From an uncultured cyanobacterium (lineage in GTDB: Bacteria; Cyanobacteriota; Cyanobacteriia; Cyanobacteriales; CAWCAG01), in assembly GCA_963803805.1 (NCBI GenBank), contig CAWDOD010000007.1:128001-192000 (forward strand): DNA of 64,000 nucleotides, written 5' to 3'. Under the pieces are notes generated by a model, which searched no databases, had not been told where the DNA came from, and was given only the letters and a program-made list of their open reading frames with translations. Shown here in pieces: positions 5,127 to 41,021 of this stretch (the first letter of the stretch is position 1; the number at the start of each line of letters is the position of its first letter). The position numbers were made by a program, and so were the translations under genes.

Positions 5127-5924
5127 TCAATAGGGCTTCTGACCTAAAAAATTACCAGGGGGATTGTAGTTGCAGACCCAAACTTCTCGACCATTACTCC
5201 TCGCCATAGCACAACCTACTTCCGTTGTTTTTGACCAAACAACTTGGGTATAGTGACCACAGACTTTACCAGAGGCGCAACTATTGGTGGCATAGTCATA
5301 ATCTTTAATTTCTTCTCCCCACATTTGTACTACTCTTTCAGGAGAGAGTTGCTGTCCCCAAGCAGAAGCAAGGTTTTCTCCGTAGGGAGAGTTGAAGCGA
5401 TGTTCTAAGTTATCTTGTTTAATTAGTTTATTGGCCCAAGCTTGGGCATAACCCGCTAGTTCATCAGACCAACTTAAAGGAGCAACGCCGTGATTTTGTC
5501 GCCATTGGTTGTGGGCATCTAACATTTGTTCAATACCTGCTGAAGAGGAAAGATCGTAGACATTGGTAGCAATACCTTCTGCTTGAGCTTCTTCTAAAGA
5601 TTTGATGCGATCTAATGTAACTCCTTGTTCTGTAATGCCGCTATCTAAATAGGCAACGGTATACTTCCAACCTCCTCTGGTATTGTACCCATAACCCATT
5701 AACCGGGCTTCTTGCCAACTACCATTTTGTAAGACATAGACAGGCTTGCCATCAAGGGGATAGGGGGGTTGTTGGGCAAGTAACATGGGCTTTGATGTGG
5801 CAGGATTTTGATTAGAGTTTCGTTGTGGCGCTCGCCCTTGGGCGGATAAATTATTGTTAAAGAGAGTAGCAACAAAGGCGATGGTGGCGATGGTAATTTG
5901 GGAGAATTGTTTTTTTGTCAGCAT
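5127..5924 (-). CDS. secreted CAP/SCP (PR-1-like) protein with an extra small N-terminal beta domain
   Basis: Signal peptide; 'LDAHNQWR', 'YGENLA', 'CGHYTQVVW', 'VGCA' and 'CNYNPPGN' CAP motifs. Confidence 0.92.
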   Translation of the reverse strand: MLTKKQFSQITIATIAFVATLFNNNLSAQGRAPQRNSNQNPATSKPMLLAQQPPYPLDGKPVYVLQNGSWQEARLMGYGYNTRGGWKYTVAYLDSGITEQGVTLDRIKSLEEAQAEGIATNVYDLSSSAGIEQMLDAHNQWRQNHGVAPLSWSDELAGYAQAWANKLIKQDNLEHRFNSPYGENLASAWGQQLSPERVVQMWGEEIKDYDYATNSCASGKVCGHYTQVVWSKTTEVGCAMARSNGREVWVCNYNPPGNFLGQKPY

Positions 5925-6053
5925 CTAGGATTCTTTAGTAATAATTTTTCCCTATTCAGTACAGATTAAATTTTAGGAACCTAGGTTCCTAAAATTTTTC
6001 TTATTGCTACTTTGTGGTTTTCTATAGAGTTTATTACTCCTTTATTAGTCGTA

Positions 6054-6162
6054 TAGTAATAGTCCTTAACTTCTTCTCCCCACATTTGTACCACTCTTTC
6101 CAGGGAGATTTGCTGCCCCAAAACTGAAGCGAGATTTTCTCCGTAGGGAGAGTCAAAGCGAT
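6054..6162 (-). pseudogene. fragment of a second CAP-domain gene
   Basis: Encodes 'RFDSPYGENLASVLGQQISLERVVQMWGEEVKDYYY', closely matching ~5293-5401 of the neighbouring gene. Confidence 0.85.
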
Positions 6163-6398
6163 AAAGAGTAAGCAATGCTGCTGCTTAACTTAAAGCTACC
6201 AACTTTGTCGAAATACCTTAACTCCCTTAGCTACAGAAGTTTGCAGATTATAAATTGCTATGAGTATGGCACAATAAGATACGTTAATTAAATATCACTT
6301 GTAACGAAATTTCATTAAATAACGAGCTTTCTAATCACTCACAACCTGGAAAGCCTAGCTTAAATTTTGTTTTTTGATGGGATAATACTATAACTAAT

Positions 6399-7481
6399 AT
6401 GACTGTAACTGCTCCAGCACCGCCAAAAACTCGTCGCGTCGTCTTCCCTTTCACAGCTATTGTTGGCCAAGAAGAAATGAAATTGGCTTTGTTATTGAAT
6501 GTGATTGACCCTAAAATTGGTGGGGTAATGATCATGGGCGATCGCGGCACAGGTAAATCCACTACCATTCGAGCCTTAGCAGATCTTTTACCAGAAATTG
6601 AGGTAGTAGCAGGAGATCCTTTTGGTAGTGACCCTCAAGATCCCGAATTAATGAGTGACCAAGTTAGGGAACAGGTAGAAAAACAACTTCCCTTAACCAC
6701 CGAAAGGAAGAAAGTGCAAATGATTGACCTTCCTTTAGGTGCTACCGAAGATTGAGTTTGCGGCACTATTGATATTGAAAAAGCTCTTTCAGAAGGGGTC
6801 AAAGCTTTTGAACCAGGACTTTTAGCTAAAGCAAATCGAGGTATACTTTATGTTGATGAAGTTAACCTCCTTGATGACCACTTAGTTGATGTACTTTTAG
6901 ACTCAGCCGCTAGTGGTTGGAATACCGTAGAAAGAGAAGGTATTTCGATTCGTCACCCAGCACGTTTTGTTCTGGTCGGTTCAGGCAACCCGGAAGAAGG
7001 AGAATTGCGTCCTCAATTACTTGATCGTTTTGGGATGCACGCCGAGATTCGTACAGTTAAAGAACCAGCCTTACGGGTACAAATTGTTGAACAAAGAGCA
7101 GAATTTGACCAAAACCCCCAAGAGTTTCTTATAAAATATCAAAATGACCAAGAAGAATTACAAACTAAACTAGTCCAAGCTAGGGAAAGTTTATCGCAAG
7201 TAGAAATGGACTACGAAATGCGAGTAAATATTTCCGAAGTTTGTTCAGAGTTAGATGTAGATGGACTACGAGGAGATATTGTTACCAACCGGGCAGCAAA
7301 AGCCCTCACCGCATATGAAGGACGTAAGCAAGTAACCGTTGACGATATTCGTAGAGTTATGACCCTTTGTCTACGCCATCGCTTACGTAAAGATCCCCTA
7401 GAATCTATTGATTCGGGTTATAAAGTACAGAAGGCCTTGAGTAGAGTCTTTGGTTTAGCTGAAGAATCAATAGATCAATGA
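6399..7481 (+). CDS. chlI: magnesium chelatase subunit I, interrupted by one in-frame TGA at 6753-6755
   Basis: One frame reads GDRGTGKST...[19 protein letters not shown]...[15 protein letters not shown]...[19 protein letters not shown]; the ORF track splits it into 6399-6755 and 7005-7481. Confidence 0.95.
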
Positions 7482-7649
7482 TTAATGATCAATGGAGTTC
7501 TTGGTTTAGCTGGAGAATCAATGATGCCTAACAGCAACGACAAGCTGAACAACGCTCAATTATGAGTTGTAGGGGCGACCAGTTTTCCAAGTATGCTTAA
7601 CAAACCAGAGTTAAAATTGGGTCGCCTGTCAGTTATTAATGATGAACCA

Positions 7650-8432
7650 ATGGCTGAACCGCTAATAGAATTAAAGGGAATTAGTAAATCTTTTGGCAGT
7701 AATGTCATTCTTGACAATATTGATTTGACTATTAATAGAGGAGAGGCACTGGTTATTATTGGTCCTTCTGGTACGGGTAAATCAACAATATTGAGAATAA
7801 TTGCTGGTTTGATGGCTCCCGATAGCGGTGAGATTTATGTTAAGGGTAAGCTTAGAAGAGGGTTAATTGAAGATAATCAAGATCCTCTTGGTATTAGTAT
7901 GGTTTTTCAGCAAGCAGCCTTATTTGACTCCTTAACTGTAGGGGAAAATGTTGGTTTCTTGCTTTACCAGCACTCTAATCTTCCTAAAGCCAAAATTCAG
8001 GATTTAGTAGAAGAAAAGCTTGAAATGGTAGGTCTAACGGGAATTAGCGATACTTTCCCCGCACAGCTTTCTGGAGGAATGCGTAAGCGAGTCAGCTTTG
8101 CTAGGGCAATTATGGCCAACCCAGAAGATGTCAATAGCAATCCTGAAATTATCCTCTATGATGAGCCTACAGCAGGTCTAGACCCCATTGCTTCTACTGT
8201 AATTGAAGATTTAGTACGTCAGCTTCAAGCTGTCTCTCAAGGGTGCGGTACTTATGTTATGGTGAGCCATCAACAAAGTACTATTCGCCGTACTGCTGAC
8301 CGGATTATCCTTTTGTTTCAAGGCAGTATCCAGTGGCAAGGAGAAGTGGAAGATATTGATAATACAGAGCATCCTGCCATTAGACAATTTTTTAGTGGTA
8401 GTCTCGATGGCCCGATCAAGGTAATTGATTAA
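7650..8432 (+). CDS. ABC transporter ATP-binding protein, MlaF/TGD3 type
   Basis: Walker A GPSGTGKS, LSGGMRKRV signature, 'YDEPTAGLDP'; next to an MCE gene. Confidence 0.9.
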   Translation: MAEPLIELKGISKSFGSNVILDNIDLTINRGEALVIIGPSGTGKSTILRIIAGLMAPDSGEIYVKGKLRRGLIEDNQDPLGISMVFQQAALFDSLTVGENVGFLLYQHSNLPKAKIQDLVEEKLEMVGLTGISDTFPAQLSGGMRKRVSFARAIMANPEDVNSNPEIILYDEPTAGLDPIASTVIEDLVRQLQAVSQGCGTYVMVSHQQSTIRRTADRIILLFQGSIQWQGEVEDIDNTEHPAIRQFFSGSLDGPIKVID

Positions 8433-8462
8433 TTACAATAATCCTAAAGTTGAGGAGAAAAA

Positions 8463-9890
8463 ATGCGCTCTCGAACTATGCGGGAAGGTTCTGTTGGTTT
8501 ATTAATCTTGGTAGCACTAGCTTTATTTGGTGGTCTGATTGTTTGGTTACGTGGTGTGGACTTTGGTAAAAGTAGCTATGATGTAACCATCAAATTTAAT
8601 GATGCTAATCGTTTAAAAGTAGGGGCCCCAGTACGTTATTTAGGAGTAGATATTGGTACAATCACCAGCATAGTACCCGTTAGTGATGGGGTTAATGCCA
8701 CGGTGGAGGTTACGGATGCTGATCTGAGAATTCCTACAGATGTAATTATTCTTGCTAATCAATCGGGGTTTATTGGTGAAACCTCTGTGGATATTAAACC
8801 CCTTAAGGATGACCTATCGTTACCTTTAAATAAGTCTACTCAGCCGACTAGCAAACAATGTGATTCTACTTTAATTATTTGTGAAGGCGATCGCATCCCT
8901 GGACAGATTGGTTCTAGTTTTGATGAATTGCTTTTAGCTAGTTTGCGTTTTGCAGAAATTTATAGTAGTGAAGAGTTTGTTGCTAACATTAATAACCTGA
9001 CCAAAAATGCTAATGCTGCTGCTTCTCAAGCTGCGGTTTTGAGTAAGGAATTAGCTTTACTTTCTCGCCAAGTACGTCAAGAATTAGGTGCTTTTACCGG
9101 GACTGCTAAATCTATTACCAGAGCAACAGACCAAACTTCTGCTCGTTTAGGAATTGCTATCGATAAACTATCTTTAAATGCTGATGTTACTAGTGCTGAA
9201 CTTGGTAATACTGCTCGTCAATACGGTTCAACGGCTGTGCGTCTTAATGAATTAGCAACTAATGTTAATAGTTTAGTAGTAGATAATCGTGGCAGCTTGG
9301 TAACAACCCTCAATAGTCTTGGTACAGTTAGCAATGAAATGCGTGGCTTAGTCGCTAACTTAAATTCTTCTTTGGATGCTAATAGTAGTAGAAGATTAAT
9401 TAACAACCTAGAAACTCTCACTGCTAATGCGGCTCAAGCATCAAATAATTTAGAAGCTTTGACAGCTAATGCAAGCAATTTAACAGCTAATTTAGAAAAT
9501 ATTACCAGTACTTTTAGCGAAGAAGAAAATTTACTTTTATTGCAACAAACCCTTGACTCCGCCAGGGTGACTTTTGAAAATGTCCAAAAGATTACTTCAG
9601 ATGTAGACGAACTTACTGGTGATCCTGAATTTCGTAATAACTTATTAAAGTTAGTCAATGGCTTAAGTAATTTAGTCTCTTCTACAGAAATATTAGAGCA
9701 ACAAATTGAAACAGCTAAAGTCTTAGATTCAGTTAATGTTGCCATTGAAAATTCAGAAGCAACTTTGGTGGATTTATCGGCTATTCCTCAAACCGATACT
9801 CAAACCTTCCCCCTCTACACTTCGAGGATTTCACGTTTTTTAACCAGTCAACAACAAGAAACTTTAAATAAAAGAACAATCAAAAAATAA
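8463..9890 (+). CDS. MCE/MlaD (TGD2/Ycf22-like) lipid-binding protein
   Basis: 'REGSVGLLIL' TM anchor, 'LKVGAPVRYLGVDIG' MCE motif, long helical tail. Confidence 0.9.
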   Translation: MRSRTMREGSVGLLILVALALFGGLIVWLRGVDFGKSSYDVTIKFNDANRLKVGAPVRYLGVDIGTITSIVPVSDGVNATVEVTDADLRIPTDVIILANQSGFIGETSVDIKPLKDDLSLPLNKSTQPTSKQCDSTLIICEGDRIPGQIGSSFDELLLASLRFAEIYSSEEFVANINNLTKNANAAASQAAVLSKELALLSRQVRQELGAFTGTAKSITRATDQTSARLGIAIDKLSLNADVTSAELGNTARQYGSTAVRLNELATNVNSLVVDNRGSLVTTLNSLGTVSNEMRGLVANLNSSLDANSSRRLINNLETLTANAAQASNNLEALTANASNLTANLENITSTFSEEENLLLLQQTLDSARVTFENVQKITSDVDELTGDPEFRNNLLKLVNGLSNLVSSTEILEQQIETAKVLDSVNVAIENSEATLVDLSAIPQTDTQTFPLYTSRISRFLTSQQQETLNKRTIKK

Positions 9891-38808: not shown

Positions 38809-38944
38809 ACCTTAAAAAACTAACAGCTAATATCTTAAAAGATTTGACAAACGAATAGAAGTTTAAGTTGTCAAAATCAGGTAATAGGTAATGGGTGTTT
38901 AATAATAAATGGTCAATATTTAATGATAAATGATAAATGGTATT

Positions 38945-41021
38945 ATGTACAATCCTTTACATCATAAATACCGTCCTCAAACCTTTGCTGAATTGGTTGG
39001 GCAAGAGACGATCGCAACTACTTTAACCAATGCAATCTTAACCCAAAGAATCGCCCCTGCTTACCTGTTTACAGGACGAAGAGGTACAGGAAAAACTTCT
39101 TCAGCGCGGATTTTTGCTAAATCCCTCAACTGCATAGCTAATCAAGAACCTAACCCAACTCCCTGTGGACAGTGTGAAGTATGTAGACAAATTGCTGATG
39201 GTTCAGCTTTGGATGTCATTGAAATTGATGCGGCGAGTAATACAGGGGTTGACAATATTCGTGATATTATCGAGCGATCGCAATTTGCTCCGGTTCGTTG
39301 CCGCTACAAAATTTATATCATTGATGAGGTTCATATGCTCAGCACCGCAGCCTTTAATGCCTTGCTGAAAACTTTAGAAGAACCTCCTGGGCGAGTAGTT
39401 TTTGTACTAGCTACAACTGATCCTCAAAGGGTGCTTTCGACAATTATTTCTCGTTGTCAACGTTTCGATTTCCGCCGCATTGCTTTAGAGGCGATGGTAA
39501 GTCATTTAGAAAAGATTGCTATCAACGAGAATATTAACATTAACCCAGAAGCAATTACCATTGTCGGGCAAATTGCCAATGGAGGTTTAAGGGATGCTGA
39601 AAGTCTTTTAAATCAGTTGAGTTTATTAATCGGAGAAATTACTGTTGAAAAAGTTTGGGATTTAGTTGGTGTTGTTCCTGAACAAGATTTATTTAACTTA
39701 CTCCAAACTATTAATTCCGATCAACCAGAAGCTGTTATTAAGCAATGCCGTTACTTATTAGATCGAGGTAGAGAACCATTGGTAGTTCTGCAAAATTTAG
39801 CTGGATTTTATCTTAATCTCTTAATCGCTAAAACTTCCCCCCATAGTTCAGAAATGGTGGCGGTTACTGCTCCTACTTGGCAAGCTTTATGTACCGAAGC
39901 ACAACATTGGGATGTCCACAAGATTTTACGAGGACAGCAGCATTTAAAAGACAGCGAGGTACAAATAAAAAATACAACTCAACCCCGTCTTTGGCTAGAA
40001 GTAACTTTGTTGGGTTTGTTACCTTCAGCGATGGCAACACCAACAAATACAAATAATCCACAACTAATAAATAATCGTCCTGCAATTACTAATACGCAAC
40101 AAACAAATACAAATAAATCACCCGCTAATCAACAAATTAATACTCAGCAAACAAATACAAATACTCAGCAAACAAATACGAATAAACTACCCGCTAATCA
40201 ACAAACTTATACTTCACAACTAGCCCCTGAAGAGCCAGCTTCTATTCCTCAAACAACTTCTCTACCAACAACTAATAATTCAGCAGACTTGCCAGAAATT
40301 TGGCATAAAATAATTAAATGTCTAGTACCGACAACACAATCTTTATTGAAAGACCACTGTAACTTAGTTAGTTTAACTGCTTCTTCGGCGATTATAACTG
40401 CTAAAAACCAAACTTTACTAGATATTGCCAAAGGCAGAAAAGATGGTATAGAAAAAGCCTTTCAACAAGTTTATAATCAGCAAGTAACTGTTCGTTTTCA
40501 AATAGGTAATAACGTAACTTCTCAAGGGAGAGAAAATTTTTCGCAAACCCCTCCCAAAGCTGTAGAAAAGCCACCGCAACACCCCCTAGGCAATCCTAAT
40601 TTAACTAGAGAGACAGATAACTTAGCTCAAACAGTTTTGCCTAGTAATGAAGAAGGTAAAAGAGGTAGAAAAAGCTCCTCCGCAACAACCTTCTCCCCTT
40701 GAAATTAATCCTCCTACTGTTGTTAAAGAAGAAACTCTTGTAGATGAAAATATCCCTCCCTCAGAAATTAAAAGTGCAACCTCTACTCTTATTAAAGAAG
40801 AAACACCAACTAAGGAAAATATTTCTAGCTCATACTTAACTGATTTTCCTGAAATTAATACAGGAATAACCAAAGAAAAAGTTGCTAAGGCGGCCAAAAA
40901 CTTAGCAGATTTTTTCTCAGGAGAGGTTATTGAACTCAGGGATGAGTTAATATTTGAAGAGATAGAATTTTCTCAAACTTCATTGGATCAAGATTTAGAA
41001 GATGACTATGACGACTTTTAA
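38945..41021 (+). CDS. dnaX: DNA polymerase III subunit gamma/tau, with a +1 frame break between 40626 and 40699
   Basis: 'HKYRPQTF', 'GTGKTS', zinc-site Cys residues, 'IIDEVHML', 'SRCQRF'; C-terminal 'AAKNLADFFSGEVI' lies in the +1 ORF 40647-41021. Confidence 0.92.

Follow-up and report, generated by a model that had tools for sequence, protein, structure and literature searches.

An in-frame TGA in the cyanobacterial magnesium-chelatase gene chlI probably reflects a motif-linked consensus miscall at GATCGAG sites

The window analysed here, a 64-kb stretch (64,000 nt) of a cyanobacterial genome designated G000 (5.3 Mb in 11 contigs, 97.4% complete), carries chlI, which encodes the ATPase subunit I of Mg-chelatase, on its plus strand. 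Translation of positions 6399-7481 in one frame gave 359 sense codons, an internal TGA at codon 119 and a terminal TGA as codon 361, and the letters around the internal stop are GAA GAT TGA GTT TGC GGC. This result bore out the preliminary description of the locus, which had reported a single in-frame TGA at a conserved arginine with the rest of the 360-residue frame intact. The features of the locus are as follows.

6399..7481, plus strand: chlI frame (Mg-chelatase ATPase subunit I), 360 codons and a terminal TGA, with one interruption at codon 119
6399..6752, plus strand: codons 1-118, called as a 118-aa ORF and containing GDRGTGKS, which we take, from the Walker A motif, to be the P-loop
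6750..6756, plus strand: heptamer GATTGAG, the recurrent context of the interruptions; presumed true sequence GATCGAG, which includes a GATC site
6753..6755, plus strand: in-frame TGA at the invariant Arg of GATEDRVCG, from translation and comparison with homologues
6756..7478, plus strand: codons 120-360, comprising the remainder of the AAA+ module plus the lid domain, without a start of their own

When the stop was read as X, Pfam placed Mg_chelatase at residues 136-205 and AAA_lid_2 at residues 285-343, and the read-through protein aligned end to end with solved ChlI proteins (E = 6.8e-192 for 8osf and 2.8e-191 for 6l8d). Its nearest database proteins are 95-97% identical, one of them being named as a Spirulinaceae MAG protein. 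The similarity to the family therefore extends over the full length, including the AAA+ module and the lid domain, and the frame as assembled departs from an uninterrupted one by the single TGA at codon 119, which we judge to be an assembly error. Like ChlI of Synechocystis and other cyanobacteria (6l8d, 8osf; BchI, 1g8p), the G000 protein is full-length and single-copy, with chlD elsewhere, whereas the gene as assembled stops after residue 118. After this stop, the first in-frame ATG, GTG or TTG lies at 7005, 83 codons on, opening an ORF at 7005..7481. Because no in-frame start occurs over these 83 codons, the 118-residue P-loop piece is the sole product that could be made; chlI as written is non-working, the lid and the remainder of the AAA+ module being lost.

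The interrupted codon falls at a position that the preliminary description had taken to be normally arginine, and comparison with homologues upheld this. TEDRVCG was present in all 120 full-length ChlI homologues among the matches listed, and short ChlI fragments carried R at the position of the stop in 119 of 120 cases and S in one (again among the matches listed). In the solved ChlI 8osf the aligned residue is also R, and the GATEDRVCG block is identical apart from the stop. The codon was read in 6 of 12 relative loci, the other six being minus-strand loci that were left out, and all six encode Arg (CGG, CGA, AGA, CGA, AGG and CGC); the same-genus genome G001 has CGG. Moreover, chlI was free of internal stops in 30 of the 30 relatives searched.

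An intact copy was sought in G000 itself and in public collections. The preliminary description had proposed complementation by a second chlI, which the genome search did not support: no second chlI was found in G000, and the only matches, at 43% identity, were to chlD elsewhere in the genome. The 41-base stretch just past the stop had no exact match in the collections of genome contigs or of metagenome contigs; since both scans returned zero, no independent assembly of the strain was found. Among proteins, none was close enough to be a same-strain copy carrying Arg, the best full-length matches reaching 97% for ChlI and 92% for PyrR, the product of another interrupted gene described below. 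ChlI fragments over residues 80-165 did not exceed 81% where coverage was full, or 90% where the alignment was partial, and no fragment ending at ...TED was present among the 120 matches listed.

The whole of G000 was searched for stop codons that lie in frame between two coding-like segments, coding character being scored by dicodons with the long ORFs of this genome as the training set. Of the 729 pairs of segments at least 60 codons long, chlI came third, and it had the longest start-codon-free stretch among the best 70 of the 729. Candidates were checked by Pfam, with stops read as X, and by their orthologues in G001 and in a further relative, G002. For the first batch, 20 more candidates were taken on the strength of their score and a late start, blind to sequence context. 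Two of them were plainly interrupted: in a PP2C phosphatase the domain ends abruptly at the stop, and in a solute-binding protein the domain extends across it. In the PP2C phosphatase the stop lies in TCC GAT TGA GTA, and eight of these bases, GATTGAGT, are identical to those in chlI. For the second batch, every in-frame GAT-TGA with an open frame on both sides was listed, and seven of those followed by G were scanned; the high-scoring cases almost all continue with G. In this batch, a Pfam domain runs across the stop in two cases, a PyrR-type phosphoribosyltransferase (VLVD-X-GHRQLPI) and a GT2 glycosyltransferase, and coding-like tails follow the stop in three more, a DRTGG/AAA_26 protein, a sulfotransferase and an FAD-dependent protein. 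Altogether, at least nine interrupted genes were verified in G000, seven of them in GAT-TGA-G, as listed below with the corresponding residues in the two relatives.

chlI, window 6753-6755, plus strand: codon 119, GAT-TGA-G
L016, C2:1009481-1011793, minus strand: PP2C phosphatase, residue 472, GAT-TGA-G; Arg in G001 (GAT CGA GTA), Arg in G002
L035, C10:464489-465028, minus strand: pyrR, residue 136, GAT-TGA-G; Arg in G001 (AGA), Arg in G002 (CGT)
L039, C2:1061547-1062557, plus strand: GT2 glycosyltransferase, residue 155, GAT-TGA-G; the same TGA in G001, Arg in G002 (53%-identical homologue)
L034, C10:83927-85027, minus strand: DRTGG/AAA_26 protein, residue 326, GAT-TGA-G; Arg in G001 (CGT), Tyr in G002
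L038, C4:120463-121389, minus strand: sulfotransferase, residue 282, GAT-TGA-G; Arg in G001, Arg in G002
L037, C6:269759-270910, plus strand: FAD-dependent protein, residue 323, GAT-TGA-G; Leu in G001 (CTA), Met in G002
L017, C2:1337113-1338438, plus strand: solute-binding protein, residue 346, TGA off the motif; TGG in G001 and G002
L014, C4:8905-10290, minus strand: large unnamed protein, residue 335, TAA off the motif; CAA in G001

The orthologues of the PyrR, PP2C, DRTGG, sulfotransferase and FAD proteins in G001 and G002 read through without a stop, and at least one relative has Arg at six of the seven GAT-TGA-G sites. In a genome with AT-rich codon usage, many transversion routes lead to a stop codon. 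Even so, a C>T or G>A change could account for each of the nine interruptions, and a transversion need not be invoked for any of them. For chlI, PP2C, the solute-binding protein and L014, a relative's codon points to such a transition; the other five are compatible with one but unproven, and for pyrR, with AGA in G001, the origin may also have been A>T.

The remaining candidates were of several kinds. By Pfam, L015, L018-L020, L022, L025, L027, L029-L033, L036 and L040 were judged to be ordinary neighbouring genes and were rejected as interrupted genes. The Pfam scan gave no family spanning the stop in L021, L023, L024 or L026, and L028 had no match in G001 or G002. The nine verified cases are counted exclusive of TGA candidates with a late start or none (C1 minus strand, 31212; C11 minus strand, 762809; C2 plus strand, 965658; C3 minus strand, 506335; C2 minus strand, 659393). 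At L015 (G000:C9:234043-235713), the segment before a DUF819 gene covers only positions 187-313 of the 316 in the glycosyl hydrolase family 3 N-terminal profile, and the glycosyl hydrolase gene may be truncated or shifted upstream.

The specificity of the heptamer was then evaluated against ordinary gene ends. TGA is the end of 547 of 2499 long coding-like segments, and GATTGAG is the second commonest 7-mer context among these 547, with 17 occurrences against about 7.5 expected from the GAT-TGA and TGA-G frequencies. By comparison, it is the context of seven of the eight verified TGA interruptions, against at most 17 of the 547 TGA contexts overall. The second batch was picked by the motif; in the motif-blind batch, the motif was present in two of four confirmed interruptions. 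The likeness among the seven sites is confined to the heptamer, and no longer motif was found around them: GAT is preceded by A, T, A, T, C, A and G in turn, and the bases past the heptamer vary. The clustering in a motif that is characteristic of methylation-linked nanopore error was thus observed, seven of the nine interruptions lying in GATTGAG, whose presumed true form GATCGAG has GATC inside it. Only a subset of the sites is affected, about 104 in-frame GAT-CGA-G sites in coding-like segments being unchanged against seven GAT-TGA-G interruptions. Counts of GATCGAG (229 in G000, 198 in G001 and 275 in G002) gave no depletion in G000, in a test without power for an effect this small; because GATCGAG is not depleted in G000, the effect is small and invisible in such counts.

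We also evaluated recoding and gene decay. Over the whole of G000, aragorn called 46 tRNAs, of which none has a UCA anticodon or is a tRNA-Sec. The 86 nt around and after the UGA gave no hairpin signal, folding at a minimum free energy of -12.4 kcal/mol (z = +1.46), with 191 of 200 shuffles at least as stable. Both hallmarks of selenocysteine recoding, a tRNA-Sec and a hairpin directly past the UGA, are thus missing from these searches. In addition, GAT-TGA-G is used at ordinary gene ends without avoidance, about 10 of the 17 being apparently ordinary against 7.5 expected; the two of these that were checked are L036 and L040. The preliminary description had excluded a global reassignment of TGA, and this exclusion held, since chlI itself ends in TGA, as do 547 of the 2499 segments, and the verified in-frame TGAs number only eight, at positions of Arg, Trp and Leu/Met. 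It had also raised readthrough or U-to-C editing, which found no support in the tRNA set, in structure past the UGA or in the use of GAT-TGA-G at gene ends. Compared codon by codon with its G001 counterpart, chlI differs at 42 synonymous and 10 non-synonymous codons after the stop, and at 16 and 3 such codons before it. As judged from these differences, constraint downstream of the stop does not appear relaxed, although a very recent event would leave no such sign.

The type of assembly was judged from its contiguity. Two rRNA operons of 5.37 kb, 99.96% identical, lie 22 kb apart in the same orientation on one contig (C10:131299 and C10:153110). Short-read metagenome assemblies almost never resolve near-identical rRNA operons within one contig. 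On account of these two operons and of the 11 contigs for 5.3 Mb, we infer that G000 is a long-read assembly; its source was probably a metagenome. Two D12-class (Dam-like) adenine methylases are among the products of G000, and HIP1 (GCGATCGC) is present in 2648 copies. In other respects the sequence is of good base-level quality: over the 64 kb of the window, Pfam matched 41 of 51 ORFs, mostly over complete profiles, and chlI was the only gene seen split across neighbouring ORFs. Elsewhere in the window (38930-41018, plus strand), the end of dnaX (590 aa) overlaps by 52 bases with a following 124-aa ORF in another frame, for which Pfam gave no match; this ORF may be a small gene of the ordinary kind or else the tail of dnaX in a shifted frame. 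Outside the window, aragorn called an odd tRNA with a two-base anticodon at G000:C7:50411-50487, abutting a tRNA-Met, which is probably a false call.

Position 6753 was examined in four public runs (X1-X4), for which assembled contigs were used. X1 contained 77% of the sampled words of positions 5500-8500, and the three others, from the same study, contained 9%. Every contig reads C at 6753, with a depth of 21/21 over three contigs in X1, 8.73/8.73 in X2, 12.5/12.5 in X3 and 27.2/27.2 in X4. In X2-X4, the one contig at 6753 in each belongs to a relative about 7% divergent from the window (92 differences in 1279 bases); the nearest natural sequence thus reads GAT CGA GTT. X1 has contigs with no difference from the window at 5771-6217, 6391-6611 and 8168-8456; because of these identical contigs, the window's strain or a very near one is present in X1. 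At 6824, 6827 and 6854, synonymous third-position differences between the strains, X1 lacks the window's letters, and the contig over these positions has a depth of 16.4, close to the sum of both strains. Small bubbles in X1 therefore seem to have been resolved toward the more abundant relative, with the variants of the window's strain dropped. Since a T in the window's strain could have been dropped likewise, the C at 6753 in the contigs supports an artefact without proving it. The preliminary description had named C at 6753 in the raw reads as the observation that would overturn its reading of the stop; all contigs of the four runs agree on C, an outcome that is not decisive given that contigs may drop window-strain variants.

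The same runs gave two further observations on the neighbourhood of chlI. A short minus-strand ORF at 5981-6175 repeats part of the CAP-domain gene at 5127-5924 (...SPYGENLAS...VVQMWGEE...) and, from its sequence, looks like a partial duplicate of that gene; the related strain seen in the public runs has 200 different bases in place of the 320 at 5867-6188. In the spacer past chlI, depth rises to 35-255x at positions 7516-7551, where very short contigs from each of the four runs accumulate, while the surroundings stand at about 10-30x; this suggests a short repeat common to many places or organisms.

Among the stops in GAT-TGA-G, that of the GT2 gene is common to G000 and G001. It lies in a block of about 2 kb that is 99.9% identical between the two genomes, with flanks 75-94% identical, and within the frame the two copies differ at two bases; because of these differences, they are separate sequences. 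The shared stop fits equally well an error recurring in the same local sequence or a real pseudogene that was exchanged. If the stop is real, the change from GATCGAG to GATTGAG would be a true mutational hot spot. The block itself (L048, G001:C1:292629-296639 against G000:C2:1061000-1064200) stands out from the compared loci, which are otherwise about 87-92% alike, and may reflect either a recent exchange or a mix-up in binning or assembly.

Taken together, these results make it probable that the TGA in chlI is a methylation-linked consensus miscall at a GATC-containing site, of the kind described for nanopore assemblies, and involves no real biology. The T at 6753 would then be absent from the DNA of the organism, and the true gene would read GAT CGA GTT and encode a normal, functional ChlI. 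According to this model, DNA methylation at or next to GATC would disturb the nanopore signal on one strand so that C is called as T, and the consensus would tip at some sites, reading T for C at a minority of GATCGAG sites; wherever GAT-CGA-G in frame is misread as GAT-TGA-G, an Arg codon would become TGA. The nanopore platform, methylation as the cause and C as the true base are what we infer from this pattern, and GATCGAG would be methylated in G000. Passages of two reports describe consensus errors that methylation induces at particular motifs in bacterial assemblies from Oxford Nanopore R10.4.1 data (PMC11610573, PMC11610603); in one of them, the error-prone sites are dominated by C2T and G2A, are strand-specific and caused by methylation, and have GATC among their motifs (PMC11610603). 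Orphan methylases for GATC and CGATCG are carried by cyanobacteria, according to a further report (PMC4390886). The interruptions in G000 match the R10.4.1 descriptions because they comprise transitions only, share a motif holding GATC and affect a subset of its sites, in a long-read assembly of a genome with Dam-like methylases. As described in those passages, R10.4.1 errors can also recur at the same site in related sequence, and the stops of G000 may be alike in this respect. The cases differ in that the passages name RACG/CGTY, GATC, CCWGG and other motifs, GATCGAG not being among those named there. The defining sign of such errors is strand-specific ambiguity among reads; the analysis of G000 covered its assembled sequence. 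A base-call error had been the first of the explanations offered in the preliminary description; it is favoured here, in the altered form of a motif-linked class of error, GATCGAG read as GATTGAG, and not of a random event.

An isolated sequencing or assembly error with no link to the motif would suit a single-base substitution in a gene that is otherwise clean, and the relative in the same samples does have C at this position. We nevertheless regard it as very unlikely, since six other genes carry a stop in the same heptamer and orthologues read through five of these six stops. Identity of the flanks by chance is itself very improbable, with GATTGAG at no more than 17 of the 547 TGA contexts and yet at seven of the eight verified TGA interruptions. 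Still harder to credit is that the T is real and that UGA in GAU-UGA-G is decoded as Arg, by near-cognate reading or a dedicated factor, or is restored by U>C editing of the RNA, so that full-length ChlI is made. The context is identical in all seven cases, relatives have Arg at six of the seven sites, and chlI resembles selenocysteine and other UGA-recoded genes in having an in-frame UGA within a conserved enzyme. However, the chlI position is Arg and not Cys or Sec, neither a UCA-anticodon tRNA nor a tRNA-Sec was called, and the region past the UGA shows no hairpin and folds no better than its shuffles. Moreover, GAT-TGA-G gene ends are not avoided, with about ten apparently ordinary ones (two of them checked) against the 7.5 expected; the closest relatives write CGA or CGG, so that, GT2 apart, the state is not conserved; and relatives have Leu or Met at the FAD site. 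Were such decoding true, chlI and pyrR would be expressed via a context-dependent stop, and the shared GT2 TGA would be the first hint of its inheritance.

A real nonsense allele is the alternative that retains some weight, although we consider it unlikely. It would arise from a C>T hot spot, for example by deamination of a methylated cytosine in GATCGAG, and would be present in the population or in the majority of the copies of a polyploid chromosome, with intact copies or cells supplying ChlI. All nine changes fit the deamination type, the X1 contigs are compatible with T in the window's strain, and GT2 has the same TGA in G001 on a copy differing at two nearby bases, so that at least one such stop may be inherited. 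Because of this shared GT2 stop, of Leu and Met at the FAD site and of the unconfirmed platform, we keep this reading at its low but real weight. Against it, chlI is single-copy here and intact in 30 of 30 relatives, nothing past codon 118 could be made in the absence of an in-frame start for 83 codons, and constraint on the gene does not appear relaxed. None of the four runs has a contig bearing T, and the alleles would have to be fixed in genes such as chlI and pyrR. Furthermore, with seven stops in one heptamer and just two others in 4.4 Mb of coding-like sequence, the hot spot would have to be far stronger than the rest of the genome. An ordinary nonsense pseudogene resembles chlI in having one in-frame stop at a CGA-type codon, whereas chlI has no other lesion, is constrained downstream, single-copy and universally intact in relatives, and shares its context with six further genes. 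The heteroallelic nonsense allele put forward in the preliminary description keeps a low probability, but it leaves seven stops in one heptamer unexplained.

A methylation-linked miscall thus being the preferred explanation, the organism very probably has a normal chlI. G000 serves as the genome of its species in the reference collection, yet no fewer than nine of its stops are false or doubtful, and seven of these share a single heptamer. Gene callers will list chlI, pyrR and others as pseudogenes or split genes, and screens for recoding or gene loss will be misled. If methylation is the cause, the heptamer marks the context of a methylated site in an uncultured cyanobacterium.
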